From NCBI GenBank assembly GCA_035697515.1, contig DASSCS010000038.1, positions 3,400-67,399 of the forward strand: 64,000 nt of DNA. Reading direction: 5' to 3'. Positions 29,485 to 58,768 of this stretch are shown one piece after another. Both the position numbers and the translations under genes were made by a program. The notes below the pieces were generated by a model that was not told the origin of the DNA, ran no database searches, and was given only the letters and a program-made list of their open reading frames with translations. Within the stretch, counting starts at the first letter, position 1, and each line of letters begins with the position of its first letter. The DNA comes from Acidimicrobiales bacterium. Lineage in GTDB: Bacteria; Actinomycetota; Acidimicrobiia; Acidimicrobiales; VFJN01.

Positions 29485-29500
29485 GTGACGCAAGTGTTAG
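29485..29500. promoter_or_regulatory. Recurring palindromic box, copy 1 (GTGACGCAAGTGTTAG)
   Basis: Lies in the divergent gap between the SDR operon and the FGGY kinase. It matches yCTrAC-N6-GTyAs on the reverse strand and shares the spacer GCAAGT with copy 4. Confidence 0.5.
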
Positions 29501-29572
29501 GAGACCGCCTACGCTCCTGTCGGTGTCACGGGCCCCTTGCACCACGTCTCGGCCCCATGCGTGGGAGCCCGC

Positions 29573-30967
29573 ATGAGCGACGTCACGGTCGGCATCGACA
29601 TCGGCACGACAGCGGTCAAGGCGGTCGCGGCCGCCGGCGACGGCACCGTGCTCGCCCGGGCGCGGGTGCCTCACGAGGTGCGGACACCGGCGCCGGGGTC
29701 GTTCGAGCACGACATCGGCCAGGCGTGGCGGGCCAACGTCCTCGCCGCCCTGGGGCAGGTCGCGACCGGGCTCGACCTCGCCGCCGTGAACGTGTCGGCG
29801 ATGGTGCCGTCGCTCGGCGCCGTGCGGGCGGACGGCACGGCCGCCGGTCCCGGCCTCCTCTACGGCGACCGCCGCGGCGAGCGCGAGGGTCACGACGCCA
29901 GCCGGCCGGGCGACAGCGGCGAGCTGCTCGCGTTCCTCGCCTGGCACGCCCGCAACTCCCCTGGGGCGGTTGCCTTCTGGCCTGCCCAGGCCGTCGCCAA
30001 CCACGCCCTCGCCGGCCGCGGCGCCATCGACTCCACCACCGCCATGACGGCCCACCCCCTGTTCGACTTCGTCGGCTGGGACGAGCGGCTGGCCGCCGAG
30101 GCGGGCGTCACGCCGGGCGCGCTTCCCGAGATCGTCGCCGGGGTCGACCCCGTGGGCCGGGTGCGGGACGGCGTTCCGGGGGCCGGCGCCCTCGTGGGCG
30201 GCGGCACCATCGACGCCCTCGCCGAGCAGTTGGTGGCGGGCGCCGACACCTCCGGGGACGTCCTCGTCCTCTGCGGCACGACGCTGATCACCTGGGGTGT
30301 GCTCGACGAGTGGCAGGAGGTCGCCGGCCTGTGGACCGTCCCCCACACGGCGGCGGGCAAGAGCCTCATCGGCGGGCCGAGCAACGCGGGCGGCCTGTTC
30401 CTCGATTCGGTCCGGGGGTGGCTGGGCGCCCCGGCGGGCATGGACGACGTCGACCCGCGGGACCTGCCGGTGTGGCTGCCCTACGTGCGGGGCGAGCGGA
30501 CGCCGCTGCACCGGCGCGACCTGCGCGCCGCGGTGGAGGGGATCGCCCTCCACCACTCGCCGGGCCACCTCCTGCGGGGGGCGTACGAGGCCGCGGGGTT
30601 CGTCGTCCGCCACCACCTCGACCTGGCCCGCCCGGCCGGCCTGGCGCCCCGGCGCATCGTGGCCACCGGCGGCGGGACCCAGGACCCGGTGTGGATGCGG
30701 GCGCTGGCCGACTGCACGGGCCTCCCGGTGCACGTCGCCGCCGTCCCGGAGGGGGCCGCCCTGGGCTCGGCGTTCGTGGCCCGCTGCGTGGCCGGCCTCG
30801 AGGCGTCGATCGCCGAGGGGGCCCGCTGGGCGCGGACCGCCCGCACCGTCGAGCCGGAGCCGGCCTGGGCCGACGCCGCCGGGGAACGCTACCGCCGGTT
30901 CCGGGCCCACACTGCGGCCGCGTTGGAGGCTCGGGCGGAGCGCTCGGAGCTCTCGCCGAGGGGCTAG
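29573..30967 (+). CDS. FGGY family carbohydrate kinase
   Basis: MSDVTVGIDIGTTAVKAV N-terminal ATPase motif and a C-terminal GGG(T)QD motif (IVATGGGTQDPVWMRALAD). ATG 29573 follows GGGAG. Confidence 0.85.
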   Translation: MSDVTVGIDIGTTAVKAVAAAGDGTVLARARVPHEVRTPAPGSFEHDIGQAWRANVLAALGQVATGLDLAAVNVSAMVPSLGAVRADGTAAGPGLLYGDRRGEREGHDASRPGDSGELLAFLAWHARNSPGAVAFWPAQAVANHALAGRGAIDSTTAMTAHPLFDFVGWDERLAAEAGVTPGALPEIVAGVDPVGRVRDGVPGAGALVGGGTIDALAEQLVAGADTSGDVLVLCGTTLITWGVLDEWQEVAGLWTVPHTAAGKSLIGGPSNAGGLFLDSVRGWLGAPAGMDDVDPRDLPVWLPYVRGERTPLHRRDLRAAVEGIALHHSPGHLLRGAYEAAGFVVRHHLDLARPAGLAPRRIVATGGGTQDPVWMRALADCTGLPVHVAAVPEGAALGSAFVARCVAGLEASIAEGARWARTARTVEPEPAWADAAGERYRRFRAHTAAALEARAERSELSPRG

Positions 30968-30989
30968 CGGCCGCGCCGGGTCGGAGCCG

Positions 30990-31439
30990 TCAGACCAGGT
31001 ACTCGAAGTGCTGCGTCTCGACCATCAGCGGCAGGCGGTAGCGCACGTAGAAGCTGTGGAGCCGCAAGGCTCCGGCGTACTCCTCGACGGTCGGCTCGAT
31101 GAGGTCGACGTCGTCCGGCTCCCGCACCTTCCAGGCCGCCGCCCGCCGGGCCACCTCCTCGAACTCGGCGAGCGACGAGACGGACAGCCCGAAGTGGTCG
31201 AGGCGGGGGGCGGTCATCGGCCGGTCGGCGGCGACGAGGAAGACGAACTGCTCGTGGGAGTGGGCGCGGAAGACGAGGCGCCCGCGGTCCCGGGTGAGCT
31301 CGGGATACTCCTCGAAGCCGAACACGTCGCCGTAGAAGTCCGCCAGGGCGCGTCGGCCGCCGGCGTCGAGCTGGGCGGCGGGAACCGACAGAGCCACGTG
31401 GTTGAGGCGCGGGGGTCTGGCGAAGTCAGGTCCGGTCAC
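30990..31439 (-). CDS. VOC family protein
   Basis: RLNHVALSVP ... LDHFGLSV double-module pattern. The GTG at 31439 overlaps the upstream ADH stop (GTGA). Confidence 0.75.
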   Translation of the reverse strand: MTGPDFARPPRLNHVALSVPAAQLDAGGRRALADFYGDVFGFEEYPELTRDRGRLVFRAHSHEQFVFLVAADRPMTAPRLDHFGLSVSSLAEFEEVARRAAAWKVREPDDVDLIEPTVEEYAGALRLHSFYVRYRLPLMVETQHFEYLV

Positions 31440-32497
31440 GGTCGCACCAGCACCTTTCCCGCGAGCCGGCCCTCGGCGAGGCCGACCATCGCGTCGAGGA
31501 GGCCGTCCAGTGCGACGACCCCCGGTTCGAGGAGCTCGTCGACGGGCACGCCTCCGGAGGCCAGGAGGTCGAGCGCCTGCTCGAGCCCGCCTTGGTCGTA
31601 GGTGAACGCCCCGGTGACGACCAGCTCGTTGAGCAGGATGCGGTTCGGGTCGAACCGGGGCGGCTCCATGCCGGCGCCGACGAGCACCAGCGTGCCGCCC
31701 CGTGCCAGCTGGGCCAGGCCCGCCTCCATGGCCGCCGCCGTGCCCGAGCACTCCAGCGCCACGTCGACGGCGCCCTCGACCACCAGACCCGGCTCGGCGA
31801 CGGTCGGCACCACGAGGTCGGCGGGGTGGCGGACGGCCGCGGCACCGACCGCCCGTGCCAGCGCCCGGCGGGGTTCGGCGGGCTCGGCGCAGGCGACGTC
31901 GTCCACGCCCATGGCCCGCAGCGCGGCGATGGTCAGCGCGCCGATCGGCCCGGCGCCCAGCACCAGGGCGCGCTGGCCGGGACGGATGCCCGACCGGGTG
32001 ATGCCGTGGAGCGCCACGGCCAGGGGCTCGGCGAGGGTGGCGGCCCGGGGCTCCAGGCCCGCGGGGAGGGGCAGGAGCGCGTCGGCTGCGGTGACCATGT
32101 AGGTGGCGAACGCCCCTCTCTCCGGCCCGAGGCCGGGGGTGTCGCGGGTGGCGCACAGCGACGGCCGGCCTGCCCGGCACATGGCGCAGGTGCCGCAGCG
32201 GGGTGCCGGCCCGCCCACGACCGCATCGCCCGGAGCCCAGCGCGTGACCGCCTCGCCGACCGTCGCGACCCGCCCGGTCCACTCGTGGCCCTGCCAGCTG
32301 CCGCGCTCGCCCCAGCCGTCGAGGACCATGTGGAGGTCCGTGCCGCAGACGCCGCAGAGGTCCACGGCCACCAGCACGTCGTGGTCGCCGACCAGCGGCA
32401 CCGCCACGTCCTCGACCACGAGCCGGCCCGGCCCCCTGAGCACCGCCGCGACCATGCGCTCCGGCACGCCCCTCACCGTAGGCACGGTGCTCGTCAT
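31436..32497 (-). CDS. Zinc-binding alcohol dehydrogenase (MDR family)
   Basis: CGVCGTDLH, GHEWTG, structural Cys cluster (CGTCAMCRAGRPSLC) and a GAGPIG Rossmann motif. Confidence 0.85.
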   Translation of the reverse strand: MTSTVPTVRGVPERMVAAVLRGPGRLVVEDVAVPLVGDHDVLVAVDLCGVCGTDLHMVLDGWGERGSWQGHEWTGRVATVGEAVTRWAPGDAVVGGPAPRCGTCAMCRAGRPSLCATRDTPGLGPERGAFATYMVTAADALLPLPAGLEPRAATLAEPLAVALHGITRSGIRPGQRALVLGAGPIGALTIAALRAMGVDDVACAEPAEPRRALARAVGAAAVRHPADLVVPTVAEPGLVVEGAVDVALECSGTAAAMEAGLAQLARGGTLVLVGAGMEPPRFDPNRILLNELVVTGAFTYDQGGLEQALDLLASGGVPVDELLEPGVVALDGLLDAMVGLAEGRLAGKVLVRP

Positions 32498-32570
32498 CCG
32501 GCGCCGCCGCCGAGGAGGGAGGTGGCGCCGGGGGCGGCGGTGGCCGGCGTGAGGGTGGCGTTGTCGCCGG

Positions 32571-33224
32571 TCACGGGTTGTCCCTGAGGTAGCGGTAGAC
32601 CCCGGCCATGTCCGTGCCTACCTTGTCCGGCAGGGGGTGGACCGTCGCCCCCATCGCCCGGGCGCCCCATACGATCTTGGCCGTCCGCTCGGCGAGGGCG
32701 GCGTTGTGCAGCGCGGTCTCTGGCGACCGCCCGCAGGTGACCAGGCCGTGGTTGGCGAGCAGCGCGGCACCCCGGTCGGCCAGGTGGGCGGCGACCTCGT
32801 CGCCGAGCGCAGCGGTGCCCGTGCCCTCGTACCGGCAGCACGGGACGTCGCCGCCGAGGTAGACGACGACCTCCTCGATCACCGCCGGGATCGGCTCGTG
32901 GGCGAGGGCGAACATGGTGGCGTAGACGGCGTGGGTGTGGATCACCGCGCCCAGCTCCGGATAGCGCCGGAGGGTCGCGAGGTGCAGGTCCTTCTCGGTG
33001 GTGGGCGAGCGGGTGCCCTCCACGACGGCGCCGTCGAGATCGACGACCACCAGGTCGTCGAGCGCCATCGTCTCGTAGTCGACCGATGACGGGGTCAGGC
33101 ACACCAGCCCGTCCGGCAGCCGCCCCGAGATGTTGCCCGACGTCCCTTCGACGAGGCCCGCCGCGAGCATCCGCTTGGCGGTGGCGAGCACCGCGTCCCG
33201 CGTGGTGGTGGGCGAGTCAGCCAC
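32571..33224 (-). CDS. Class II aldolase/adducin family protein
   Basis: GTSGNISGR, LHLATL and VIHTHAVYAT motifs. 217 aa. The GTG start overlaps the upstream stop by 8 nt. Confidence 0.85.
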   Translation of the reverse strand: MADSPTTTRDAVLATAKRMLAAGLVEGTSGNISGRLPDGLVCLTPSSVDYETMALDDLVVVDLDGAVVEGTRSPTTEKDLHLATLRRYPELGAVIHTHAVYATMFALAHEPIPAVIEEVVVYLGGDVPCCRYEGTGTAALGDEVAAHLADRGAALLANHGLVTCGRSPETALHNAALAERTAKIVWGARAMGATVHPLPDKVGTDMAGVYRYLRDNP

Positions 33225-34197
33225 GGCCGAGGACCTCCCGGTTGGCGAGGTTGGCCGGCGCCTCGCCGCGCAGCAGCGCGGCGAGCCCCTCGGCCATGAG
33301 GGTGGTGTGGTTGGCCTCGGTGTCGTAGGTGGCGCCGCCGATGTGCGGCGTGAGCACCACGTTCGGCATCGACGCGAGCGGGTGGCCGGTCGGTAGCACC
33401 TCTCCCTCGAAGTGGTCGAGCGCGGCCGCGGCCAGGTGGCCCGACTGCAGGGCGGCGGTGAGCGCGTCGAGGTCGTGGAGGCCGGCCCGGGCCGAGTTCA
33501 CGTACACGGCGCCCTGCCTCATGGCGGCGAACCGGTCGCTCGACATGAGGCCGACGGTGTCTGGCGCGACGGCCGCGTGCATCGACACCACGTCGGCCTC
33601 GGCGAGCAGGTCGTCGAGGCCGTGGGTGGCCGCGGCCACGTTGGGGTCGCTGGCGATGACCCGCATGCCGAGCCCCTCGAGCCGCCACCTGGTGGCCCGA
33701 CCCACGGCGCCCAACCCGACCAGCCCGGCGGTCCGGCCCATCAACTGCCAGGCCCGGAAGCGCTGGTAGGGGATCGAGCCGTCCCGGTACACCTGCCCCT
33801 CCCGCACGTCCCGGTCGGCGGCGACCAGGCCGCGGGTGGCGGCGAGCAGCAGGCCCACGGTCAGCTCGGCCACGGCGTCGGCATTGCGCCCGGGCGCCCG
33901 CAGCACAGGGATGCCGGCGGCGGTGGCGCCGGCCACGTCGACGTTGGTGGGATCGCCACGGGTGGCGCAGATGGCCTCGAGCGGGAGGTCGAGCACCGGG
34001 CCCGAGCACTGGTCCGCCTCGCAGATCACCACGGACGCGCCGAGCGCGGCCGCCCGCTGGGCCAGCTGGTCGGCGTCGTAGATGCGCAGCGGGCGATGGT
34101 CGATCCACGGATCGAGGACGACCTCGCCCAGCGCGCGGAGGGCGGCGAGGCCCGGGCCCCGCAGCGGGGCCGTGGAGAGGATGACGCGATCAGCCAT
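33217..34197 (-). CDS. D-isomer-specific 2-hydroxyacid dehydrogenase family protein
   Basis: NAD motif GLVGLGAVGRATRWRLEGLGMRV and catalytic region TPHIGGAT. Start trimmed to ATG 34197 (MADRVILS). Confidence 0.85.
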   Translation of the reverse strand: MADRVILSTAPLRGPGLAALRALGEVVLDPWIDHRPLRIYDADQLAQRAAALGASVVICEADQCSGPVLDLPLEAICATRGDPTNVDVAGATAAGIPVLRAPGRNADAVAELTVGLLLAATRGLVAADRDVREGQVYRDGSIPYQRFRAWQLMGRTAGLVGLGAVGRATRWRLEGLGMRVIASDPNVAAATHGLDDLLAEADVVSMHAAVAPDTVGLMSSDRFAAMRQGAVYVNSARAGLHDLDALTAALQSGHLAAAALDHFEGEVLPTGHPLASMPNVVLTPHIGGATYDTEANHTTLMAEGLAALLRGEAPANLANREVLGRG

Positions 34198-34297
34198 CGG
34201 CGCCGGGCAGCTCGACCTCGACGGTGGCCGTGGCCACGACGGTGCCGTCCTGGTCGCGCAGGCTGTCCCCGGCGGCCTGGGCATCGGTTTCGCTCAT
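34190..34297 (-). CDS. Candidate 35-aa acidic small ORF translationally coupled to the dehydrogenase
   Basis: Reverse strand: GGAGG-ctg-ATG, giving MSETDAQAAGDSLRDQDGTVVATATVEVELPGADG. 32 of 35 codons end in G/C. Its TGA overlaps the downstream ATG (ATGGCTGA). It is below the ORF-track length cutoff. Confidence 0.35.
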   Translation of the reverse strand: MSETDAQAAGDSLRDQDGTVVATATVEVELPGADG

Positions 34298-34337: not shown

Positions 34338-34353
34338 CTGACACCAACGTTAG
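34338..34353. promoter_or_regulatory. Recurring palindromic box, copy 2 (CTGACACCAACGTTAG)
   Basis: Lies in the divergent gap on the side of the minus-strand small-ORF/dehydrogenase/aldolase operon. It is preceded by CCGTAC, as are copies 4 and 5. Confidence 0.5.
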
Positions 34354-34408: not shown

Positions 34409-34424
34409 CTGACACTCGAGTCAT
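34409..34424. promoter_or_regulatory. Recurring palindromic box, copy 3 (CTGACACTCGAGTCAT)
   Basis: Overlaps a TAATCT -10-like hexamer (34405-34410), 20 nt upstream of the M24 ATG. The flank GTAATCTrACA is the same as in copy 6. Confidence 0.5.
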
Positions 34425-34443: not shown

Positions 34444-35652
34444 ATGACGGTCGACGGACGGCAGGTGCCTGCGGAGGCCGACCGCGCCCGCATGCGGGCC
34501 GAGCGTCATGCGAAGCTCCAACACGAGCTCGCCGCCCAGGGCCTCGACGGGCTCCTCCTGCTCGGCACCAGCGCCGTCACCTACGCCACCGGCGCCGAGT
34601 CCCCCGGCTGCGACAGCGGGCGGGCGGCGCTCCTGCGCCCGGTCGCCGTCGTCGTGGCGGGCGCCGAGCACCCGCACCTGTTCACGCCCTACCCCGAGGG
34701 GGTGCCCGCCGAGCTGCCGTCCGACCACCTGCACCCCGCCGTCGTGCCGGATCTGGACGACGGCGCCGCCACCCTCGCCGGCGAGCTGCGGGCCCTCTTC
34801 GCCGGGAGCTCCCGGCTGGGTTGCGACGAGGTGCCCCACGCCGTCGCCCGTGCCCTCGGGGGTGTCCGGCTCCTGCCGGCGTCGGGTGTGCTGGGACCGG
34901 CGAAGCTGTGCAAGACCGTCGACGAGCTGGCCTGCATCCGCCGGGCGCAGCGCGTCAACGAGCAGGCGATGCTCGACGTTCGGCCGCTGCTGCGCCCTGG
35001 CGTCACCCAGACCGACCTGAGCGCGCGGTTCCTCCGCCGCGTGGTCGAGCTGGGAGCCGAGCAGATCGGCATCGACCCCATCTGGCAGCCGATGCCGCCC
35101 TCCAGGGCCGACGGTCCCTGGACGGTCCACGGCGATCTCGCGTTCCCCCTCCCGAGCGCCCCGCGCCAGCTGGCGGAGGGCGATGTCGTCTGGGTCGACA
35201 CCGGCATCCACGTCGGCGGCTATGCCTCGGACTTCGGCCGCACCTGGATCGTCGGCGACGACCCCACGCCGACGCCGCGCCAGCAGGCGCAGTTCGAGCG
35301 GTGGCGGAACGTGGTGGACGCCGTGCTCGCGCTGTGCAAGCCGGGCGTCTCGGCCCTCGAGCTGGGCCGGGCGGCGAGGGCCGCCGAAGGCGGCGGCAGG
35401 CCCTGGATCGAGCACTTCTACCTGGCGCACGGCGTCGGGACCGACAGCGCCGAGATGCCGCTGATCGGTACCGACCTCGGCGATGCGTTCGACGAGACGC
35501 TGGTGATGGCCGCCGGCATGGTCCTCGTGCTCGAGCCGGTGATCTGGGACGACGGCGCCGCCGGCTACCGCTCCGAGGACATCGTGGCCATCACTGACGA
35601 CGGCTGGATGCCCCTCAGCGACCACCCCTACGACCCGTTCGTCGCCGCATGA
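34444..35652 (+). CDS. M24 family metallopeptidase-fold protein (creatinase/Xaa-Pro peptidase-like)
   Basis: Pita-bread motifs are present with all five metal-ligand positions: VDTG, GYASDFGRT, AHGVG, VLVLEP and YRSEDIV. Confidence 0.8.
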   Translation: MTVDGRQVPAEADRARMRAERHAKLQHELAAQGLDGLLLLGTSAVTYATGAESPGCDSGRAALLRPVAVVVAGAEHPHLFTPYPEGVPAELPSDHLHPAVVPDLDDGAATLAGELRALFAGSSRLGCDEVPHAVARALGGVRLLPASGVLGPAKLCKTVDELACIRRAQRVNEQAMLDVRPLLRPGVTQTDLSARFLRRVVELGAEQIGIDPIWQPMPPSRADGPWTVHGDLAFPLPSAPRQLAEGDVVWVDTGIHVGGYASDFGRTWIVGDDPTPTPRQQAQFERWRNVVDAVLALCKPGVSALELGRAARAAEGGGRPWIEHFYLAHGVGTDSAEMPLIGTDLGDAFDETLVMAAGMVLVLEPVIWDDGAAGYRSEDIVAITDDGWMPLSDHPYDPFVAA

Positions 35653-36791
35653 CCACGCTCGCCGAGCCCTCGCGCGTCGACGACGTCGAGGTGCGTGCCG
35701 ACCGTCGGCGGCGCCTGTTCGCCGCCATGGCCGAGCGCCACCTCGACGTGCTCGTTCTCGGGCGGCCCGCCGAGGTGGCCTTCGCCTCCGGGGCCCGCCA
35801 GCTCTGGACCGCCGGATCGCGCCCCTTCGGTCCCGCGTGCGTCGCGGTGCGGACGACCGGTCACACCCACCTGCTGTCGGTGTCCGACCACGACGTGCCG
35901 CCCGAGGTCGTCCACGACGACCTCTTCGGCCTGTCGTGGAACCCCGCCAACATCGCCGCCTCGCTGGGCCGCATCCCCGGTCTACGCGAGGCGAGGCGGG
36001 TGGGGACCACCTCGTCGACCCCCGGGTTCCCGCGCCTCCTGGCCGCCGTGGCGCCCGTGGCCGAGGTCGTCGACGGCAGCGAGGCCGTCTGGGCGGCGCG
36101 GTCGCCCAAGAGCGCCGCCGAGGTCGCTCGCATCACCGCCGCCGTCGCGATCGCCCAGGCCGCGCTCGCCGCCATGGTCGACGCCCTCCGCCCGGGCGCC
36201 ACCGAGCGGGGCCTGGTCGCCGCCTACCTCGAGGCCATCGCGTCCGTCGGTGCGCCGACCCCGCCGACCGAGGGCGTGGCGTGCGCCACCCCGAGCCGCG
36301 GCCCGGTCGGGCTGCGGCGCATCGCCACGGGTGCCCCGATCGAAGCCGGGCAGCTCGTCGTGCTCGATCCGGGCGGCCACTACCGGGGCTACGAGGGCGG
36401 GCTCGGCCGCACCTGGGTGGCGGGGGGCGCCGCCTCCGATCGCCAGCGGGCGCTGGCACGCCGCTGCCGCGCCGCCCTCGACGCCGTCCTCGCCGCCTGC
36501 CGGGCGGGCGCCACCGGCGGCGACCTCGTCGCCGCCTGGGCGTCGTGCGGCGAGGCGCTCCCGGCTGTGCCGCTGGCCCACGGGGTGGGGCTGGGCGTCG
36601 AACCGCCGATCATCGGCGCGGGCGTCGGTGCCGCGAGCGCGCTGGGGCCGGACACGGTCCTCGCCGTCACCGGGTGGGTCGCCGAAGAGGGCGTCGGTGG
36701 GTTCCTCGAACGGGACCTGGTGCTCGTCACCGAGGGGGACCCCCGGGTGCTGACCACGAGTGGCCGGGGCCCGGCCGGGAACGGGGCGTGA
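35649..36791 (+). CDS. M24-fold paralogue with degenerate metal site
   Basis: ATGA overlap with the first M24 gene. Same fold markers (LDPG, GLGRTW, AHGVG), but by-eye alignment puts Gly and Thr where the second Asp and one Glu ligand should be. Confidence 0.75.
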   Translation: MTTLAEPSRVDDVEVRADRRRRLFAAMAERHLDVLVLGRPAEVAFASGARQLWTAGSRPFGPACVAVRTTGHTHLLSVSDHDVPPEVVHDDLFGLSWNPANIAASLGRIPGLREARRVGTTSSTPGFPRLLAAVAPVAEVVDGSEAVWAARSPKSAAEVARITAAVAIAQAALAAMVDALRPGATERGLVAAYLEAIASVGAPTPPTEGVACATPSRGPVGLRRIATGAPIEAGQLVVLDPGGHYRGYEGGLGRTWVAGGAASDRQRALARRCRAALDAVLAACRAGATGGDLVAAWASCGEALPAVPLAHGVGLGVEPPIIGAGVGAASALGPDTVLAVTGWVAEEGVGGFLERDLVLVTEGDPRVLTTSGRGPAGNGA

Positions 36792-36793
36792 CC

Positions 36794-38044
36794 ATGGCCG
36801 AGCGGGTCACCGTCGACTTCGACCACCACGACCGGGCATGGCACGCCGACCGGGCCGAGAGGTGGCGCGAGCTACGGCGTTGCCCCGTCGCCTTCAACGA
36901 GCGCTACGGCGGCTTCTGGGTGGTGAGCGGCTACGACGAGGTGGCGACCGTGTCCCGCGACGGCGAGACGTTCTCCAGCAGGCACGCCCCCGAGCCCGAG
37001 GACGGCGTCCGCTACCTCGGCATCGCCGGCATCCCCCGCGGCAAGGCCATCCCCACCGCCGGCATCGCCGAGGTGGAGGGTCCCACGCACACGGCACTGC
37101 GGCGGGTGATGAACCCGTTCCTGGTGCCCAACGCCGTCGCCCGGATGCGGCCCCTCATGCAGGCGGCCAGCACCTGGTTCCTCGATCAGCGGATCGAGCG
37201 CGGCACCCTGGACCTGGTGCTCGACCTGGCGAACCCTGTGCCCGCGATCCTCACCATGGAGCTCGTCGGCCTTCCACTCGACGACTGGAAGGCGTACGCC
37301 GACCTGTTCCACGGCACGATCGCCCACCGCCCCGGCGACCCCGAGTTCGACCAGGCAGTGGCCAACGTGCCCGTCATGCTCGCCCGGCTCGGCGAGGTCG
37401 CCACCGAACGCCGGGCGCACCCGGGCGACGACGTGCTCAGCGCGCTCGTGCAGGCGGACGTGGGCGGCCGCCGCCTCACCGACGGCGAGGTGCAGAGCGT
37501 GCTGTGGAACCTGATCGGCGGCGGGCTCGACACCACGACCTCCCTGACCTCGCTCTCGCTCCACCACCTCGACGCCCACCCCGAGCTCCGCGCCCAGCTC
37601 ATCGACCATCCCGAGCTGATCGGTGCCGCCACCGAGGAGTTCCTGCGCTTCTTCTCGGTGAACGAGACCCTCACCCGCACGATCACCCACGACACCGAGC
37701 TGGGCGGACAGCAGCTCCGTCGCGGCGAGCACCTGATGCTCAGCTGGCTGTCGGCCAACCGCGACGAGTCGGTGTTCGACCGGGCCGACGAGGTCGTGCT
37801 CGATCGCGCCGCCAACCCCCACCTCGCCTTCGGCGTCGGGCCCCACCGCTGCATCGGCATGCACATGGCCCGGACGATGTTCCAGGTGCTGCTCGCCGAG
37901 GTCCTCACGCGCCTTCCCGACTACGCGGTCGACCGCGAGGCCACCCGGTTCTACGCCGGGAACCCCGAGCTCAACGGCGTGGTGACCATGCCGGCGACGT
38001 TCACCCCCGGCCCGAGGATTGGGCCCCGCCAGCGGCCGTTCTGA
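36794..38044 (+). CDS. Cytochrome P450
   Basis: I-helix LIGGGLDTTTS, ExxR (EEFLRF) and heme loop FGVGPHRCIGMHMA. The ATG lies 2 nt after the M24 stop. Confidence 0.9.
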   Translation: MAERVTVDFDHHDRAWHADRAERWRELRRCPVAFNERYGGFWVVSGYDEVATVSRDGETFSSRHAPEPEDGVRYLGIAGIPRGKAIPTAGIAEVEGPTHTALRRVMNPFLVPNAVARMRPLMQAASTWFLDQRIERGTLDLVLDLANPVPAILTMELVGLPLDDWKAYADLFHGTIAHRPGDPEFDQAVANVPVMLARLGEVATERRAHPGDDVLSALVQADVGGRRLTDGEVQSVLWNLIGGGLDTTTSLTSLSLHHLDAHPELRAQLIDHPELIGAATEEFLRFFSVNETLTRTITHDTELGGQQLRRGEHLMLSWLSANRDESVFDRADEVVLDRAANPHLAFGVGPHRCIGMHMARTMFQVLLAEVLTRLPDYAVDREATRFYAGNPELNGVVTMPATFTPGPRIGPRQRPF

Positions 38045-38104
38045 GACGGCATCCACCGACGCCGCGCCAAGCTCGCCCAGTCAGCCACACATCGGGGGAA
38101 CGCC

Positions 38105-40384: not shown

Positions 40385-40469
40385 TCGACCTGGCGGCGAT
40401 TGGGACCAACGGCCCTGGCCACTGGCACCTCCGAGGCCCACGATCGTCACAACGACGAGGAGGCGACCC

Positions 40470-47925: not shown

Positions 47926-47935
47926 GGCCGGCCAC

Positions 47936-48349: not shown

Positions 48350-49125
48350 GGCCGGCGGTCCCGGGCGAAGGCGACCACGCCGGCGAGGAACCCGTCCACG
48401 TCGCCGGTCTTCAGCTCGACGATGGGCTTCATGTCGGGCAGGTAGTGCTCGAACCGGTCGCCCTCGATGGCGTCGACGATGCCGGCGGCGACGTCCTCGG
48501 CCGGCTCGAAGGGACCGTCGTACAGCGGCGGGTCGTTGCCGGGCTGGTCCCAGATCTCCGTGGCCACGGCGCCGGGGAGGACGAGCCTGACATCCACCGG
48601 CGTGTCCCACAGATCGAGCTGCATCGCCTCCGACCAGCCGGCCAGGGCGAACTTCGACGCGCAGTAGGCGGCCTCGCCGGGGATGCCCACCCGGCCGCCG
48701 AAGCTGGACACGTTGACGATGACCCCGCGGCCCCGCTCGAGCATGCAGGGGAGGACCGCCAACGACATCCGGACCGGCGACTCGAAGTTCACCGCCATGG
48801 TGTGGCGGATCTCGTCGAGGGTGAGGTCGGTGACGGCGCGGCGCTTGGGGACGGCGGCGTTGTTCACGAGGACGTCGATGCCGTCGAGCTCGGCCCACGC
48901 CCGGCGGGCGAGCGCCTCGGCCGCATCGGTGTCGCCCAGGTCGGCCACCCACATGCGCGAACCGGGCCGGTGCCGCCGGCAGCGCTCGAGCACCTCGGCG
49001 AGGCGGTCCGCGCGTCGGGCGACGATGCCGACCGTGGCCCCCCGCTCCGCCAGCAGGGGAGCGAGCGCCGCCCCGATGCCGGACGACGCCCCCGTGACCA
49101 CGACTCTCGCCTCGGCGACCTGCAT
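48346..49125 (-). CDS. SDR family oxidoreductase
   Basis: TGASSGIG, NNAA and YCASKFA motifs. Start trimmed to ATG 49125. Confidence 0.9.
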   Translation of the reverse strand: MQVAEARVVVTGASSGIGAALAPLLAERGATVGIVARRADRLAEVLERCRRHRPGSRMWVADLGDTDAAEALARRAWAELDGIDVLVNNAAVPKRRAVTDLTLDEIRHTMAVNFESPVRMSLAVLPCMLERGRGVIVNVSSFGGRVGIPGEAAYCASKFALAGWSEAMQLDLWDTPVDVRLVLPGAVATEIWDQPGNDPPLYDGPFEPAEDVAAGIVDAIEGDRFEHYLPDMKPIVELKTGDVDGFLAGVVAFARDRRP

Positions 49126-49132
49126 GGCGCGC

Positions 49133-49138
49133 ACCGTA
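49133..49138 (-). promoter_or_regulatory. -10 hexamer (TACGGT) of a leaderless promoter
   Basis: The reverse strand reads TACGGT-gcgcgcc-ATG (start 49125). 7-nt spacing. Confidence 0.5.
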
Positions 49139-49139
49139 C

Positions 49140-49155
49140 CTGACGCCACTGTCAG
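49140..49155. promoter_or_regulatory. Recurring palindromic box, copy 6 (CTGACGCCACTGTCAG, perfect half-sites)
   Basis: Sits 1 nt beyond the -10 of the SDR/VOC/SRPBCC operon, the same geometry as copy 4. It is 10 nt downstream of the TetR stop. Confidence 0.55.
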
Positions 49156-50570: not shown

Positions 50571-50586
50571 CTAACAGCAACGTCAC
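50571..50586. promoter_or_regulatory. Recurring palindromic box, copy 7 (CTAACAGCAACGTCAC)
   Basis: Overlaps a TAATCT hexamer (50567-50572), 25 nt upstream of the amidohydrolase ATG at 50611 and divergent from the TetR gene. Confidence 0.5.
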
Positions 50587-50610: not shown

Positions 50611-51894
50611 ATGCGCGTCGACGATCTGGTCCTGGTGAGCGTGGACGACCACGTCGTCGAGCCTCCCGACCTGTTCGAGGGGCGCCTGTCGGCGAAGGCG
50701 GCCGAGCGCGCGCCGTTCGTCCGGAAGCTGGAGAACGGGCGCGAGGTCTGGATGTTCGAGGGCACGGCCCTGCCGAACGTCGGCCTCAACGCCGTGGCGG
50801 GCCGGGTGCCGGAGGAGTACGGCCTCGACCCGCTGGCGTTCTCGGAGATGCGGCCCGGCTGCTACGACATCCATGAGCGCATCCGCGACATGAACGTCAA
50901 CGGAGTGCTCGGCTCGCTCAACTTCCCCAGCCTGGCCGGCTTCACCGGGCAGCTCTTCTCCACCTGCGACGACCGGGACATCGCCATCGAGCTGCTGCGC
51001 GCCTACAACGACTGGCACGTGGAGGACTGGTGCGGCACCTATCCGGGCCGCATGATCCCTCTGGCCGTTCCCCCCATCTGGGACGCCGAGCTCATGGCGG
51101 CCGAGGTCCGGCGCATGGCCGGGAAGGGCTGCCACGCGGTCACCTTCTCCGAGAACCCCGAGAAGCTCGGCCGGCCCAGCTGGCACAGCGACCACTGGGA
51201 CCCGTTCCTCGCCGCCTGCGAGGAGGTGGGCACCGTCATCTGCCTGCACATCGGCTCGTCGTCGCAGACCGTCATCACGGCCATGGACGCGCCGATCGAC
51301 ACGATGATCACGCTGCAGCCGATGAACATCGTCCAGTGCGCGGCCGACCTCGTGTGGTCGCCGGTGTTCCGGAAGTTCCCGCGCCTGAAGGTGGCGCTCA
51401 GCGAGGGGGGCATCGGGTGGGTGCCCTACTTCCTCGAGCGGCTCGACTACGTCTACCAGCACCACCGGGCGTGGACGAACCAGGACTTCGGCGACAAGCT
51501 GCCGAGCCAGGTCTTCAACGAGCACGTCCTCACCTGCTTCATCGACGACGCCGTGGGCATGGAGGTGCGCCACCACCTCAACCCCGACCACATCCACTGG
51601 GAGTGCGACTACCCCCACTCCGACTCCACCTGGCCGCACGCCCCCGAGCTGGCGATGAAGTACCTCGAGGGCCTGCCCGACGAGGACATCGACCGCATCA
51701 CGCACCGCAACGCCATCGCCAACTTCAGCTTCGACCCCTTCGCCCACACCCCGCGGGAGCAGGCCACGGTGGGGGCGCTCCGGGCGCAGGCCACCGACGT
51801 CGACACCACGCCGGTGAGCCACGGCACCGGGAAGTTCCAGGAAGAGGGCATCGTGACCGCGATGACGCTCGCCGAGCGCCTGGCCCGCAAGTGA
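50611..51894 (+). CDS. Amidohydrolase_2 family protein
   Basis: 427 aa. LVSVDDHVVEPPDLF opening, AVTFSENP and the HWECDYPHSDSTWP motif. Confidence 0.8.
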   Translation: MRVDDLVLVSVDDHVVEPPDLFEGRLSAKAAERAPFVRKLENGREVWMFEGTALPNVGLNAVAGRVPEEYGLDPLAFSEMRPGCYDIHERIRDMNVNGVLGSLNFPSLAGFTGQLFSTCDDRDIAIELLRAYNDWHVEDWCGTYPGRMIPLAVPPIWDAELMAAEVRRMAGKGCHAVTFSENPEKLGRPSWHSDHWDPFLAACEEVGTVICLHIGSSSQTVITAMDAPIDTMITLQPMNIVQCAADLVWSPVFRKFPRLKVALSEGGIGWVPYFLERLDYVYQHHRAWTNQDFGDKLPSQVFNEHVLTCFIDDAVGMEVRHHLNPDHIHWECDYPHSDSTWPHAPELAMKYLEGLPDEDIDRITHRNAIANFSFDPFAHTPREQATVGALRAQATDVDTTPVSHGTGKFQEEGIVTAMTLAERLARK

Positions 51895-52295
51895 GCAGCG
51901 CACCCTTCCGGGTGCAGCCCGCGCTGGACGACGACAACCGCTTCTTCTGGACGTCCGGCGCAGACGGCCGCCTCCGGTTCCTCCGCTGCCAGGCCTGCGG
52001 CTACTACCTGCACCCGCCGCTGCCCCGCTGCCCCGAGTGCGGCAGCCGCGACGTGGCGCCCGAGGCCGTGAGCGGCCGCGGCGAGGTGTACTCGTACACG
52101 GTGAACCACCAGCCCTGGGACGGTGGCACCGAGCCCTACGCCATCGTGATCGTCACCTTCCCCGAGCAGGAGGGCCTCCGCCTCACGAGCAACCTCGTCA
52201 ACTGCCCGCCCGACGACGCCCGCATCGGCCTGCCGGTGCGGGCGGTGTTCGAGCAGCACGGCCTCGTGTGGTTCCCGCTCTTCGAGCCGACATGA
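51891..52295 (+). CDS. DUF35 OB-fold/zinc-ribbon protein (thiolase-associated)
   Basis: GTGA overlap. Rubredoxin-like CQACGYYLHPPLPRCPECGS followed by the OB-fold segment GEVYSYTVNH. Confidence 0.85.
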   Translation: MSSAPFRVQPALDDDNRFFWTSGADGRLRFLRCQACGYYLHPPLPRCPECGSRDVAPEAVSGRGEVYSYTVNHQPWDGGTEPYAIVIVTFPEQEGLRLTSNLVNCPPDDARIGLPVRAVFEQHGLVWFPLFEPT

Positions 52296-53509
52296 CGGAC
52301 GTCGAGCGGCGATCGATCATCTCCGGCGTCGGCCAGTCCGACGTGGGCCGGCGGCTGGGCCGGTCCGGGCTCGACCTCACGCTCGACGCCGCCCTCGAGG
52401 CCATCGCCGACGCCGGACTCACCCCGGCCGACATCGACGGCATCGCCACCTACCCGGGGGCGGGCGGGGGCGCCGGCGCCGGGTTCAGCGGTCCGGGCAC
52501 GCCCGAGGTGCAGGACGCCCTGCGCCTGGAGGTGAACTGGCACACGGGCGGCATCGAGGGTGCGGCCCAGCTGGCCGCGGTCGTCAACGCGGTGCTGGCA
52601 GTGAGCGCCGGCCTGGCCCGCCACGTGCTGGTGTACCGCACCGTGACCGAGTCGACCGAGCAGGGCAGCGGTGGCCGCCAGGGCATCGGCATCGGTGGTG
52701 GGGCCGGCGGGGGAGGGGGTGGCGGCGCGCCGCGCATGAGCGGCGTCATGCAGTGGAGCATCCCCTTCCGGGCCTACTCGGCGGCCAACTGGCTGGCGAT
52801 GATCGCCCACCGCCACTTCCACGAGTACGGCACCACGCCCGAGCAGATGGCGATGATCGCCGTGAACGGCCGCCGCAACGCCGGGCTCAACCCCAAGGCC
52901 GTATACCGCGACCCGATGACCCTGGACGACTACTTCGCCTCCCGCATGGTCACCTCGCCCTTCCGCCTGTACGACTGCGACGCCCCCGTCGACGGCTCCA
53001 CCGCCGTCGTCGTCTCGGTGGCCGGCCACGCGTCCGCCGTCGACCACCCGGTGGCCCGGGTCGAGGCGGTGGGGACCGCGCTGCGCGGGCGGCCGTCGTG
53101 GGACCAGTTCGACGACCTCACGACGATGGCCGCTCGTGACGCCGGTGCCCAGCTGTGGACCCGCACCGATCTGAAGCCGGCGGACGTCGACGTGGCCGAG
53201 CTCTACGACGGGTTCAGCTTCCTCGCCATGGTCTGGCTGGAGGCGCTCGGCTTCTGCGGCAAGGGCGAGTCGGGCCCCTTCGTCGAGGGCGGCCACCGGA
53301 TCGCGCTCGACGGCGAGCTCCCGCTCAACACGCAGGGGGGCCAGCTGTCGGCCGGGCGCTTGCACGGGTTCGGGTTCATCCACGAGGCCTGCCTCCAGCT
53401 CCGGGGCGAGGCCGGCGACCGCCAGGTGGGCGCAGACGTGGAGGTGGCGGCGGTCGCCAACGGCGGGGGGCCCATCGCCGGCGCGCTCCTGCTCACCCGC
53501 GCGGGCTGA
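52292..53509 (+). CDS. Thiolase-like protein (SCP-x / lipid-transfer / Ltp-type, non-acetoacetyl)
   Basis: ATGA overlap with DUF35. ISGVGQSDVGRR, LYDCDAPVDGSTAVVV, AELYDGFSF and NTQGGQLSAGRLHGFG are typical of DUF35-partnered thiolase-fold proteins. Contains a Gly-run insertion. Confidence 0.8.
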   Translation: MTDVERRSIISGVGQSDVGRRLGRSGLDLTLDAALEAIADAGLTPADIDGIATYPGAGGGAGAGFSGPGTPEVQDALRLEVNWHTGGIEGAAQLAAVVNAVLAVSAGLARHVLVYRTVTESTEQGSGGRQGIGIGGGAGGGGGGGAPRMSGVMQWSIPFRAYSAANWLAMIAHRHFHEYGTTPEQMAMIAVNGRRNAGLNPKAVYRDPMTLDDYFASRMVTSPFRLYDCDAPVDGSTAVVVSVAGHASAVDHPVARVEAVGTALRGRPSWDQFDDLTTMAARDAGAQLWTRTDLKPADVDVAELYDGFSFLAMVWLEALGFCGKGESGPFVEGGHRIALDGELPLNTQGGQLSAGRLHGFGFIHEACLQLRGEAGDRQVGADVEVAAVANGGGPIAGALLLTRAG

Positions 53510-53570: not shown

Positions 53571-54764
53571 TCAGCCGACGCCCATCAGCCGAGCCAGGTT
53601 GCCGCCCATCACCTTGGCGGTCTCCTCGTGCGACAGCCCGTCGAGGTCGTCGACGAAGCTGAGCGGGTCGGCCATGCCCTCCGGGTGCGGGTAGTCCGAG
53701 CCGAACACGACGTTGTCGGCGCCGATGGCCCGGCACAGCCCGACCGGGTCGTCCTCGTGGAACGGGTGCACGAAGATGTTCCGCTTGAACACCGCCACCG
53801 GGTCCTCCTCGAAGAGGTGCGGGCTGAAGGCGTAGGCCGACGCCATGTCGTGCAGCAGCGGGCGCACCCAGGCGCTGCCGTTCTCGACCGGCACGATCTT
53901 CAGGCCGGGGAAGCGGGTGCAGAGGCCGTGGCCGATGGCCGACGCCACCGTGTCGGTGATCGAGCGGTGCTGGGCCTGGGTGATGGCGGCGAAGGCGCTG
54001 CCGCCCTTGAACGGGGTGAACTCGCCGTCCCGGACACCCTCCCACTCGTCGAGGTAGCGCTGGTAGCCGCTGTCGGACGCGTGCATGCCGACCACGACAT
54101 CCTTCTCCTGGACGAGCTCCCAGAACGGGTCGAACTCCGGCAGGGCGAACGAGCGTGGCCCCCGGAAGCCCGGCACCGGCGCGGGGCGCACGAGGATGAT
54201 CCGCGCACCGCGCTCGGCCACCCACTCGAGCTCGTCGACGGCCTTCTCGACGATCGGCAGCGTGATCACCGGCGTGGGGAAGATCCGGCCCTCGTAGTCG
54301 AACGTCCACTGCTCGTGCATCCACTGGTTGAGCGCATGGATCAACGCGTGGGTGGCGTCGGGGTCGTCGCGCAGGCGCTCCTCGACCAGGCTCGCCAGCG
54401 TGGGCCACATGAGGGCCCGGTCGAGGCCGAGCTCGTCCATCAGCTCGAGGCGCGGCCCGGGCTCGCGGAAGGCGGGGATCGCGTCGATGGCCTTGCCCAT
54501 GATCTCCCGCCGGCTCTTGCCCTCGGGGTTGCCGACCTTGAAGTACTCCTCCTGCGCGCCGGGGGCGGCCACGCGGTCGAAGGTCGGGTTCGGGATGTAG
54601 TTGCTGATGTGCCCCTTGACGGCGATCTTGGTGCGACCCCGCACCTCGACGAAGTCGATGACCCCCTGGTAGCGATCGGGCACGAACTTCGTGAGCGCGT
54701 CCTTCGTCTCGTACATGTGGTTGTCGGCGTCGAAGACGGGAAAGTCGAGCTGACGAGACGGCAT
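53571..54764 (-). CDS. Amidohydrolase_2 family protein (400-aa class)
   Basis: FDADNHMYE, IPNPTFD and VVFGSDYPHPEG. Paralogue of 41784..42986. Start trimmed to ATG 54764 (MPSRQLDF). Confidence 0.8.
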   Translation of the reverse strand: MPSRQLDFPVFDADNHMYETKDALTKFVPDRYQGVIDFVEVRGRTKIAVKGHISNYIPNPTFDRVAAPGAQEEYFKVGNPEGKSRREIMGKAIDAIPAFREPGPRLELMDELGLDRALMWPTLASLVEERLRDDPDATHALIHALNQWMHEQWTFDYEGRIFPTPVITLPIVEKAVDELEWVAERGARIILVRPAPVPGFRGPRSFALPEFDPFWELVQEKDVVVGMHASDSGYQRYLDEWEGVRDGEFTPFKGGSAFAAITQAQHRSITDTVASAIGHGLCTRFPGLKIVPVENGSAWVRPLLHDMASAYAFSPHLFEEDPVAVFKRNIFVHPFHEDDPVGLCRAIGADNVVFGSDYPHPEGMADPLSFVDDLDGLSHEETAKVMGGNLARLMGVG

Positions 54765-54785: not shown

Positions 54786-54801
54786 GTGACATGGCTGTTA
54801 G
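54786..54801. promoter_or_regulatory. Recurring palindromic box, copy 8 (GTGACATGGCTGTTAG)
   Basis: Lies 22 nt upstream of the amidohydrolase start on the minus strand. The reverse strand reads TATGGT-GATCTAACAGCCATGTCAC. Confidence 0.5.
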
Positions 54802-57540: not shown

Positions 57541-58706
57541 CACACCAGCTCCAGGTTCTCGACGGCGCGGACGCCCTGTGAGTACAGGAGCTCGACGCCG
57601 TCGCGCAGACGGTACTCGGGGATGGCCCTGTGCCACTCGTCGAGCGCCACCCGCAGCTCCATGCGGGCGAGGTGCGACCCCAGGCAGCGGTGCGCGCCGG
57701 CGCCGAACGCGATGTGCCGGTTCCCGGCCCGTTCGAAGTCGACGGTGTCGACGTCGTCCCACGCCCGCTCGTCGGTGTTGGCCGACCCGAGCATCACCGA
57801 GACGACCTGTCCCTTCGTCACCGGGCAACCGCCGATCTCCGTGTCCGCGGTCGCGATGCGCACGACGCCCTGCACCGGGGTCTCCCAGCGCAGCAGCTCC
57901 TCGATGGCGTGCTGGATGAGCGACGGGTCGTCCACCAGCCGGCGGCGGTGGTCGGCGTGCTGGGCGAGGTAGCTCATGATGCAGTCGAGCGAGGCCGTCA
58001 CGGTGTCGAGGCCGGCGAGGAAGAAGAGGTAGCCGATGTCGAGCACGTCGTCGTCGGTGAGGCGGTGGCCGTCCACCTCGGCGTCGAGGAAGAGGGAGAG
58101 GAAGTCGTCCGAACGCTCGCGCCTGCGCTCGTCGATGGCCTCCTGCAGGACCGCGTAGATCTCCTGGCCCACCCGGGCGGTGTACTCGACCCGTTCGCCC
58201 CGGGTGGAGACCGGCGGGCGGATGATGCCGTCCTTGAGCCTCAGGAACTCCTGTGCCCGGCTCACCGGCAGGCCGAGGAGCCGCAGGAACACGGTGGTGG
58301 GCAGCGGCTCGGCGACCGCGGTGTGGAAGTTGCACCCGCCCTGGTGAGCCACGGCAGCGACGAGCTCCCGCACCAGGTCGCGGGTCTGGTCCTCGAGCAG
58401 GGCGATCTGCCGGGGGGCGAAGATGGGGTCGAGCAGCTTGCGGTAGTTGCGGTGCTGGGGTGGGTCGATCTGGAGGGGGATGAGCGGCCGCACCTGACCG
58501 ATCGTGACGGCGTCGATCCCGGAGCTGAACACGTCCGGGTGCTGCAGCACGTGGCGGACCTCGGCGTCGCCGCAGACGATCACCATGCCCACCTCTCCGC
58601 CCAGGTCGATGACCGGCCCGGCGTCGCGCATCTGCTTCAACAGGGGCTGCGGGTGGGCGAGCACCTCCGGCTCGGGCTCGCCCCCGAACAGGCTCGACTC
58701 GGACAT
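57537..58706 (-). CDS. Cytochrome P450
   Basis: I-helix FFLAGLDTVTAS, ExxR (EELLRW) and heme loop FGAGAHRCLGSHLA. Confidence 0.9.
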   Translation of the reverse strand: MSESSLFGGEPEPEVLAHPQPLLKQMRDAGPVIDLGGEVGMVIVCGDAEVRHVLQHPDVFSSGIDAVTIGQVRPLIPLQIDPPQHRNYRKLLDPIFAPRQIALLEDQTRDLVRELVAAVAHQGGCNFHTAVAEPLPTTVFLRLLGLPVSRAQEFLRLKDGIIRPPVSTRGERVEYTARVGQEIYAVLQEAIDERRRERSDDFLSLFLDAEVDGHRLTDDDVLDIGYLFFLAGLDTVTASLDCIMSYLAQHADHRRRLVDDPSLIQHAIEELLRWETPVQGVVRIATADTEIGGCPVTKGQVVSVMLGSANTDERAWDDVDTVDFERAGNRHIAFGAGAHRCLGSHLARMELRVALDEWHRAIPEYRLRDGVELLYSQGVRAVENLELVW

Positions 58707-58752
58707 TCGGACCCCCTCTGCGACCAGTGGAGGCCCCAGTTGTACTCCAAAT

Positions 58753-58768
58753 CTAACGTTGGCGTCAC
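58753..58768. promoter_or_regulatory. Recurring palindromic box, copy 9 (CTAACGTTGGCGTCAC)
   Basis: Lies 47 nt upstream of the P450 start on the minus strand, at the head of the P450/ALDH/CoA-transferase operon. It has the same ATCTAAC flank as copies 7 and 8. Confidence 0.5.

Follow-up and report, generated by a model that had tools for sequence, protein, structure and literature searches.

The window analysed here, a 64-kb stretch of contig DASSCS010000038.1 of an Acidimicrobiales bacterium with a G+C content of 73%, contains a block of catabolic genes in whose intergenic gaps a short palindromic box recurs. This raises the question of whether the boxes are operators that tie the genes into a single regulon and, if so, which protein reads them. 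An initial reading of the gaps by eye (the original prediction) had counted nine copies of a 16-bp palindrome in a 30-kb block and had interpreted them as the repressor operators of one regulon, an interpretation supported by both the placement of the boxes in the gaps and their conservation in orthologous gene clusters. The best reading of the sequence is an autoregulated repressor with two TetR units in one polypeptide (double TetR), encoded within the block, which would act on a 20-bp quasi-palindromic operator and control a regulon organised like that of KstR.

Distribution of the box in the window

Genes were delimited with a gene model built here from codon-usage log-odds, according to which non-coding DNA makes up 5.7% of the window; the intergenic DNA (70.6% G+C versus 73%) is slightly richer in A+T than the coding DNA. 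All nine 16-mers read by eye lie exactly where they had been placed. Their degenerate core, TRAC-N6-GTYA, has exactly nine matches on the two strands of the whole window, as against a mean of 0.97 (standard deviation 1.06; maximum 5) in 100 dinucleotide-preserving shuffles, and all nine are intergenic, with none in coding DNA. When only the intergenic segments are shuffled, the count expected in intergenic DNA is 0.044 on average (maximum 2). The unbiased whole-window search thus returns the same nine sites and no others, and the pattern is not an artefact of a reading restricted to the gaps. Replacement of the N6 spacer by N4, N5, N7 or N8 leaves 0-1 matches each within the window, and direct arrangements of the half-sites are not enriched. 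Furthermore, among all 4-mer palindromic dyads (spacers of 0-12), scanned without prior choice of motif, TGAC-N6-GTCA was the sole A/T-containing dyad with all of its copies (3/3) in intergenic DNA, and no competing A/T-containing palindromic dyad was found in the window. An RNA-based explanation was rejected, as Rfam and tRNA scans of the window found nothing.

The nine exact boxes and a probable tenth are given below with their adjacent hexamers, which follow TAnnnT, the form of actinobacterial -10 elements.

19801..19816: CGAACAGTCGTGTCAC, probable tenth box, intergenic, with one mismatch (G for T in the left half); 11 nucleotides (nt) downstream of the -10-like TACTGT (19784-19789) and upstream of an ABC substrate-binding-protein gene, with a ferredoxin gene on one side and a Liv-type ABC transporter operon on the other
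29485..29500: GTGACGCAAGTGTTAG, between the divergent -10-like hexamers TACGGT (minus, 29470-29475), serving a leaderless SDR gene, and TACGCT (plus, 29510-29515), serving an FGGY kinase gene
34338..34353: CTGACACCAACGTTAG, in a divergent gap, on the side towards the 2-hydroxyacid dehydrogenase/aldolase operon (minus)
34409..34424: CTGACACTCGAGTCAT, covering the last 2 nt of TAATCT (34405-34410) of the M24/M24/P450/sulfatase operon
41738..41753: CTGACGCAAGTGTCAG, in the gap separating two divergent Amidohydro_2 genes, flanked by TACTGT (minus, 41731-41736; leaderless start 41723) at 1 nt and, 16 nt downstream, by TACGAT (41770-41775; ATG at 41784)
43020..43035: GTGACGTGATCGTTAG, overlapping TAACGT (43016-43021), upstream of the operon for a fused acyl-CoA dehydrogenase (ACAD), a CoA ligase and a nitroreductase
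49140..49155: CTGACGCCACTGTCAG, shortly past the 3' end of the regulator gene, with TACGGT (minus, 49133-49138) of the SDR/VOC/SRPBCC operon 1 nt away
50571..50586: CTAACAGCAACGTCAC, where the regulator gene and the Amidohydro_2-DUF35-thiolase operon diverge, overlapping TAGATTA
54786..54801: GTGACATGGCTGTTAG, 3 nt downstream of TATGGT (minus, 54805-54810)
58753..58768: CTAACGTTGGCGTCAC, overlapping TAGATT (minus, 58750-58755) of the P450/aldehyde dehydrogenase/CoA-transferase operon; orthologous sites occur in related loci

The operons originally assigned to the boxes stand, with the additions that the 29485 box also faces the FGGY-kinase gene and the 50571 box the regulator's own gene, while the gene functions read from the translations were confirmed by Pfam. 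The number and extent of the boxes require some adjustment. Nine is the count of exact copies, and the statement that the first 29 kb are empty needs correction, as it holds for the exact core only; with the one-mismatch site at 19801 the boxes number ten and the block extends from ~19.8 to 58.8 kb, that is ~39 kb rather than 30 kb, with 13 transcription units and ~34 genes. As one-mismatch core matches as a class occur at chance level (31 seen versus ~28 expected in the window), the case for 19801 rests on its position, flanks and orthologues, which make it a probable tenth box. In a window scan with a position weight matrix built from the nine sites it scores 19.7, while the next match, in coding DNA, scores 10.5. 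Moreover, an exact box lies upstream of the substrate-binding-protein gene in six of the eight related loci carrying that gene (the loci, L001-L079, are described below), and one of the other two ends before the upstream DNA. Two further candidates, at 60771 (5' of a 609-amino-acid CoA ligase gene) and 53521, were rejected as not credible. In loci L068, L069 and L072 the exact box of the substrate-binding-protein promoter abuts GGTACTGT; in the region 19765-19789 the window retains GGTACTGT but has a degenerate sequence (ATCCGGGGACGCCGC) on its 5' side, the near-box being placed 11 nt downstream instead. The transporter operator may have been relocated in the window relative to these distant relatives.

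Promoter regions beyond the two ends of the block (18.0-18.1 kb, 60.6-60.9 kb and 61.9-62.1 kb) are without a box. Within the block, the co-directional gaps at 38045-38104 and 40385-40526 carry none and are probably internal to an operon.

Conservation of the box and the regulator gene among Acidimicrobiales

Close homologues of the regulator, sharing 70-94% identity with it, occur in metagenome-assembled genomes of Acidimicrobiales. For comparison, 79 related loci (1.2 Mb; one genome per species) were assembled, the regulators of which are 46-85% identical to that of the window; they include representatives of the Microthrixaceae, Iamiaceae and Acidimicrobiaceae, Candidatus Microthrix parvicella and the cultured Aquihabitans sp. 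McL0605. These loci hold 211 boxes with the N6 spacing, against 3-11 matches for the N3-N5 and N7-N9 spacings. Intergenic matches number 182 and 'coding' matches 29, which compares with nine and none in the window and bears out the expected excess in intergenic over coding DNA; 18 of the 29 lie no more than 150 nt from a called gene end, which points to start-codon miscalls.

Of the 76 loci that extend far enough upstream, 64 have a box no more than 250 bp in front of the regulator gene itself. This box always has the same orientation and follows the consensus (A)T(G/C)TGACrnnnnyGTTAGATTAGc, overlapping the -10-like TAGATT, and thereby backs the link to a tandem TetR protein that had been suggested from the window. 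Where the regulator gene follows a short-chain dehydrogenase gene (L035, L037, L071 and L074), the box is found in front of the dehydrogenase gene instead. The conserved core of the loci consists of thiolase, DUF35 and Amidohydro_2 genes, the box and the double-TetR gene, in that order. The same gene families adjoin boxes in the related loci and in the window, namely the Amidohydro_2 (AH2) families AH2_427, AH2_397 and AH2_400/282, ACAD, SDR_262, the ABC substrate-binding protein, P450_389, ferredoxin and VOC, and the box is thus kept in orthologous clusters across Acidimicrobiales, which had been proposed as a check. In both orthologous promoter regions that were aligned, the box and the -10-like hexamer form a conserved island (41738 in alignment A2, 54786 in alignment A3), and in the AH2_397 promoter alignment the upstream intergenic sequence has diverged apart from this island. 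The site orthologous to the 43020 box is nearly identical in L004, while orthologues of the 49140 box are found in L004, L017 and L023.

The everted arrangement GTYA-N6-TRAC, with 43 matches, was considered as a second motif and rejected, being one conserved AH2_427 coding segment counted once per orthologue. This segment, GTCAT(C/G)G(C/T)(C/G)GTGAC, lies ~1280 bp into the AH2_427 orthologues of ~30 loci (for example at 8682 in L004) and corresponds to a conserved protein segment. As it recurs with each orthologue, it illustrates how orthologous sequences can inflate motif counts.

Three of the loci deserve mention individually. Aquihabitans sp. McL0605 (L019), with a complete genome (NZ_CP188252.1), carries the regulator gene and six boxes in 21 kb. 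Locus L079 (CAMAYS010000007.1) is a contig of 49.6% G+C labelled as a Bifidobacterium breve metagenome-assembled genome; its double TetR is 46% identical to that of the window, and the gene is preceded by a box of full consensus (GTGACAGCACTGTTAGATTAG). This contig is probably mis-binned or mislabelled, and the box persists in it in a much lower G+C background. Locus L012 (CAWJGJ010000001.1) harbors two paralogous double-TetR genes, 77% and 61% identical to that of the window, at most 10 kb apart, and no exact box was found directly upstream of the first. Literature searches found no report of this regulon or of such regulators in Acidimicrobiales, and nothing relevant on TetR regulators in Microthrix.

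Structure of the box and promoter geometry

The 183 distinct intergenic sites give, after symmetrisation, the 20-bp profile A(76%)-Y-C(67%)-T-R-A-C-R-N4-Y-G-T-Y-A-G-R-T, in which the half-sites are invariant while the N6 spacer and the flanks vary. The profile is two-fold symmetric over the 20 bp, its sole asymmetry being a preference for the pairing of TAAC with TGAC. The 16-mers first described are real, but the conserved unit measures ~20 bp, and the box is a quasi-palindrome and not a strict palindrome. TAAC/TGAC pairs make up 139 of the sites, TGAC/TGAC pairs 42 and TAAC/TAAC pairs two, a large excess of heterotypic pairs at the level of distinct sites. Counted by promoter family (~9 families), six are heterotypic, three TGAC/TGAC and none TAAC/TAAC, which is not a significant excess. 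Since the sites are phylogenetically non-independent, the family-level count is not significant and the TAAC half doubles as part of a -10-like TAG hexamer at several promoters, the polarity of the half-sites is no more than suggestive.

TAnnnT hexamers lie no more than 18 nt from 95% of the boxes, versus 12% of random intergenic positions; if only hexamers wholly outside the core are counted, the figures are 49% and 7%. In the window, a hexamer of this kind is found no more than 16 nt from the box for 12 of the 13 promoter directions. The assignment of promoters is inferred from these hexamers, from leaderless geometry and from conservation. The hexamer lies 7-8 nt before the start codon of four genes (starts 29462, 41723, 41784 and 49125), suggesting leaderless mRNAs. 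For the SDR gene at 48346..49134, the true start is probably ATG 49125 and not GTG 49134, because the latter overlaps the -10 hexamer.

The position of the box relative to the -10 hexamer differs between promoters. At 29485 it lies between two divergent -10 hexamers and over both -35 regions, the boxes at 41738, 49140, 50571, 58753, 34409 and 43020 overlap the -10 hexamer or lie just upstream of it, and those at 54786 and 19801 lie just downstream, over the likely start site; at the promoter of the Amidohydro_2 gene 53571..54764, the 54786 box would extend over approximately +1 to +15. Because its position varies by promoter, the box fits an operator better than a sigma-factor element or a fixed-geometry activator site.

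At the regulator's own promoter, the TAGATTA heptamer at 50567-50573, kept upstream of the regulator gene in ~60 genomes, contains a -10-like hexamer in both directions (TAATCT on the plus strand, 50567-50572; TAGATT on the minus strand, 50568-50573), which suggests that the regulator gene and the divergent Amidohydro_2 operon share one symmetric promoter acting in both directions. As the heptamer reads as a -10 element on both strands, the single box at 50571 could shut both promoters.

The candidate double-TetR regulator

The candidate regulator is encoded by the following gene.

49166..50428, minus strand: double TetR, 420 amino acids, with two Pfam TetR_N stretches and helix-turn-helix (HTH) motifs near residues 25-71 and 247-291

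It is the sole regulator gene of the block and the sole transcription-factor gene between ~8 and 62 kb, the remaining regulator genes of the window (AraC, LysR, PadR and a SARP-type ATPase regulator) all lying below 8 kb. The protein matches PF00440 (TetR_N; e-value: 5.6e-30) in two separate stretches, and its sequence is matched by more than 100 TetR-family chains of the PDB. The two halves share 34% identity over 96 amino acids (e-value: 7e-14), and in view of this resemblance an origin by internal duplication is plausible. Their recognition helices are alike but not identical (AGCSRPAFYQYFSSKD versus AGVSHGTFYRYFENKD), and the corresponding peptides, CSRPAFYQ and SHGTFYRY, are the most conserved of the regulator, in keeping with the invariant half-sites.

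In the AlphaFold model (pLDDT 78; pTM 0.77) each half has nine helices and is predicted to consist of an HTH followed by an all-helical ligand-binding/dimerisation domain, the halves being joined by a low-confidence linker (residues 214-237); the pTM suggests a defined arrangement between them. Each half superposes on single-domain TetR structures (TMt 0.5-0.7). The only full-length PDB match to the model is the Mce3R chain 9b7y_A (419 columns; TM 0.60/0.65; root-mean-square deviation 9.1 A; 19% identity), whereas every other structural match covers one half only. Orthology to Mce3R was ruled out by this 19% identity and by phmmer, in which the N and C halves both align only to residues ~9-133 of Mce3R, its N-terminal DNA-binding domain. 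By these comparisons, the regulator shares the double-TetR architecture of Mce3R without being its orthologue. No curated NCBIfam model reaches its cutoff on the regulator. Among the closest relatives of each half, by sequence and by structure, are the acyl-CoA-binding regulators FadR, KstR and AibR.

Proposed mode of regulation and alternative explanations

We infer that the double TetR binds the boxes and does so as a repressor, and it is likely that the boxes are its operators. As a single polypeptide it would form an intramolecular pseudo-dimer, in which each of the two similar HTH domains reads one half-site. The half-sites, TGAC or TAAC on one side and GTCA or GTTA on the other, have their centres 10 bp apart and would present successive major grooves of the 20-bp quasi-palindrome. 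Bound in this manner, the protein would occlude RNA polymerase at 13 transcription units, including that of its own gene, since each box is proposed to overlap a core promoter element. A pathway metabolite entering a single ligand pocket would release the double TetR and switch on uptake, by way of the ABC transporter, together with catabolism by the CoA ligases, CoA-transferase, acyl-CoA dehydrogenases, thiolase/DUF35, five Amidohydro_2 proteins, two P450s and dehydrogenases. The inducer is most likely a CoA thioester, given the two CoA ligases, CoA-transferase, acyl-CoA dehydrogenases and thiolase/DUF35 pair of the regulon and the acyl-CoA-binding relatives of each half of the regulator.

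The alternative that best survives, although unlikely, is that the box is a genuine operator bound by another regulator encoded outside the window, with the double TetR merely a member of the regulon. Several families of regulators read palindromes of the 5-N6-5 type, and the window spans only 64 kb of the genome. Against this stands the retention of a box immediately in front of the double-TetR gene, with an orientation that stays fixed over a range of 46-85% regulator identity, and TetR-family repressors as a rule regulate themselves from a divergent promoter (PMC1995591). Furthermore, the block is without a second transcription-factor gene, and synteny maps of the related loci, in which 'other' genes are unannotated, show no second conserved regulator family from the window.

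Somewhat less probable still is a role of the box in turning the genes on, either as a promoter element (an alternative sigma-factor motif) or as a class II activator box. A few TetR-family proteins do act as activators, the boxes are tightly associated with -10-like hexamers and, in the promoter of the regulator gene, TAGATT is fused to the right half-site. However, where the box lies and how it is oriented with respect to the -10 hexamer and the gene differ between promoters, which is incompatible with an element of fixed geometry. In addition, the two-fold symmetry of the 20-bp profile fits a dimer-like binder and not a sigma factor, and boxes lying over -10 to +15 would block the polymerase. 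That the boxes arose by chance or belong to a small dispersed repeat (REP/MITE-like) without regulatory role, as the A+T-richer intergenic DNA and a first reading confined to the gaps might suggest, is so improbable as to be effectively refuted by the shuffles of the window and of its gaps, the 64 of 76 regulator promoters and the spacing counts of the related loci, and runs counter to the variable N6 and flanks around invariant half-sites, the retention of the box at orthologous promoters across an order, and the lack of tandem or long repeat features and of any Rfam match.

Several points weigh against repression by the double TetR. The host organism is known from metagenome assemblies only, the tenth site is mismatched at an otherwise invariant position, and the genes presumed to be regulated are functionally heterogeneous and without a nameable substrate. 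The related loci were retrieved with the two recognition-helix peptides, and all share the same DNA-reading residues; they are also phylogenetically non-independent, and orthologous sites are not independent observations. Between 40.8 and 59 kb, no promoter was found in a scan for the strict sigma-70 consensus, which is unsurprising in DNA of 73% G+C, and for this reason TAnnnT hexamers were used to position the promoters. Finally, the Mce3R precedent, a non-palindromic 25-bp site (PMC11667970), does not predict a quasi-palindrome.

A more far-reaching version of repression by the double TetR can be put forward tentatively, although we doubt that it will hold in all its parts. The regulators could constitute a second lineage of single-chain double-TetR repressors, of independent evolutionary origin, that arose by internal duplication and not by fusion of unrelated units. 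Their quasi-palindromic operator would be polarised, with one HTH preferring the ATCTAAC half and the other the sTGAC half, and the protein would take a set orientation on each promoter. Such a system could form an order-wide master switch of ~34 genes in Acidimicrobiales, including the relatives of Microthrix.

Comparison with characterised regulators

The mycobacterial TetR-family repressor KstR (Rv3574) controls a large lipid and cholesterol catabolic regulon, which was defined by a palindrome over the -10 element of its own promoter, conserved across species, and by 16 further intergenic copies in M. tuberculosis (PMC1995591). The present system resembles it in the predicted overlap of the palindrome with the -10 element of the regulator's own divergent promoter and its conservation across species, in the many intergenic copies within a cluster of catabolic genes, of which a good number separate divergent genes and some share a gap in pairs, and in the nature of the genes concerned, which encode acyl-CoA-processing enzymes and P450s. 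In contrast, KstR is a single-domain protein binding as a homodimer while the present regulator is a double TetR, the half-sites of the KstR motif (TnnAACnnGTTnnA) are 2 bp apart whereas the box is TRAC-N6-GTYA, and KstR belongs to the Mycobacteriales, with a different enzyme set and substrate from those of the Acidimicrobiales system.

Mce3R (Rv1963c) of M. tuberculosis is the only structurally characterised double-TetR repressor (PDB 9b7y; PMC11667970). Like the present regulator, it has two TetR units in one polypeptide of ~400-420 amino acids, and it governs adjacent lipid-metabolism operons through operators in intergenic DNA, two of which lie in a single gap, a layout similar to that predicted here. 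The intramolecular pseudo-dimer fold of Mce3R is characterised by an M1-M2 four-helix bundle. Its halves are described as weakly related (PMC3711444), as opposed to the 34% identity found here, and its operator is 25 bp in length and non-palindromic (PMC11667970). An asymmetric operator of the Mce3R type is not what was found for the box, the 183-site profile being two-fold symmetric.

In spacing, the box has its closest parallels in operators of the 5-N6-5 type recognised by the TetR-family regulators McbR (TAGAC-N6-GTCTA) and AmtR (CTAT-N6-ATAG) of Corynebacterium glutamicum, which are likewise inverted repeats 6 bp apart governing multi-operon regulons in Actinomycetota. They differ in their half-sites, in the single-domain nature of the regulators and in their scattered biosynthetic or nitrogen regulons, which form no contiguous catabolic island.

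The type of mechanism, a TetR repressor with a palindromic operator over the promoter, is textbook, and the unusual part is the duplicated single-chain TetR with a quasi-palindromic operator. As a natural and highly conserved further double TetR whose predicted operator differs in kind from that of Mce3R, it would be useful as a test of how single-chain TetR pseudo-dimers read DNA. The box defines a predicted regulon by sequence (ten operators, ~34 genes) in a hardly studied and largely uncultured order of Actinomycetota, of high abundance in soils and activated sludge, across which the regulator and box are conserved. It links genes that annotation would leave apart, among them those for the ABC transporter, five Amidohydro_2 proteins, two P450s, acyl-CoA dehydrogenases, CoA ligases, a sulfatase and a copper amine oxidase. 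With the regulon defined, the pathway and the inducer become approachable by experiment, for which Aquihabitans sp. McL0605 offers a tractable cultured host.

Predicted regulated genes

The transcription units of the block that are predicted to be regulated through the boxes, in addition to the regulator gene, are as follows.

19887..24856, plus strand: Liv-type ABC transporter (substrate-binding protein, fused permease, two ATPases)
24880..29462, minus strand: SDR, Zn-dependent alcohol dehydrogenase, copper amine oxidase, PNP_UDP_1 phosphorylase-like protein
29573..30967, plus strand: FGGY-family kinase
30990..34297, minus strand: 2-hydroxyacid dehydrogenase, class II aldolase, Zn-dependent alcohol dehydrogenase, 149-amino-acid protein without family
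34444..40853, plus strand: two M24/creatinase-like proteins, P450, sulfatase, possibly a 108-amino-acid open reading frame
40875..41723, minus strand: Amidohydro_2 protein, 282 amino acids, leaderless
41784..42986, plus strand: Amidohydro_2 protein, 400 amino acids
43062..47492, plus strand: fused two-module ACAD (742 amino acids), acyl-CoA ligase, nitroreductase
47434..49134, minus strand: SDR, VOC/glyoxalase protein, SRPBCC protein
50611..53509, plus strand: Amidohydro_2 protein (427 amino acids), DUF35/ChsH2-type OB protein, thiolase-like lipid-transfer protein
53571..54764, minus strand: Amidohydro_2 protein, 397 amino acids
54820..58706, minus strand: P450 (389 amino acids), aldehyde dehydrogenase, family III CoA-transferase

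No NCBIfam model scores above its cutoff on the proteins of the block so as to name a pathway, and a literature search for this gene combination found nothing relevant. The best NCBIfam hints, all below cutoff, are PimC/PimD-like or IpdE-like (IpdE2) for the fused ACAD and lipid-transfer-protein or BbsAB-like for the thiolase/DUF35 pair. Many of the related loci have two separate, adjacent ACAD genes in place of the 742-amino-acid fusion (43062-45290). An open reading frame of 35 codons with good codon usage (34190-34297, minus strand) overlaps the called start of the 2-hydroxyacid dehydrogenase gene (33217-34197) by 8 nt in another frame; it could reflect a frameshift, an assembly error or a mis-called start, and alters the distance between the 34338 box and the gene. 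Outside the block, the window further encodes two large regulator-like proteins of the ATPase type, an 872-amino-acid Trans_reg_C/AAA_16/TPR protein (5002-7620) and a 1038-amino-acid NACHT/AAA-TPR protein (14920-18036), both unrelated to the boxes.

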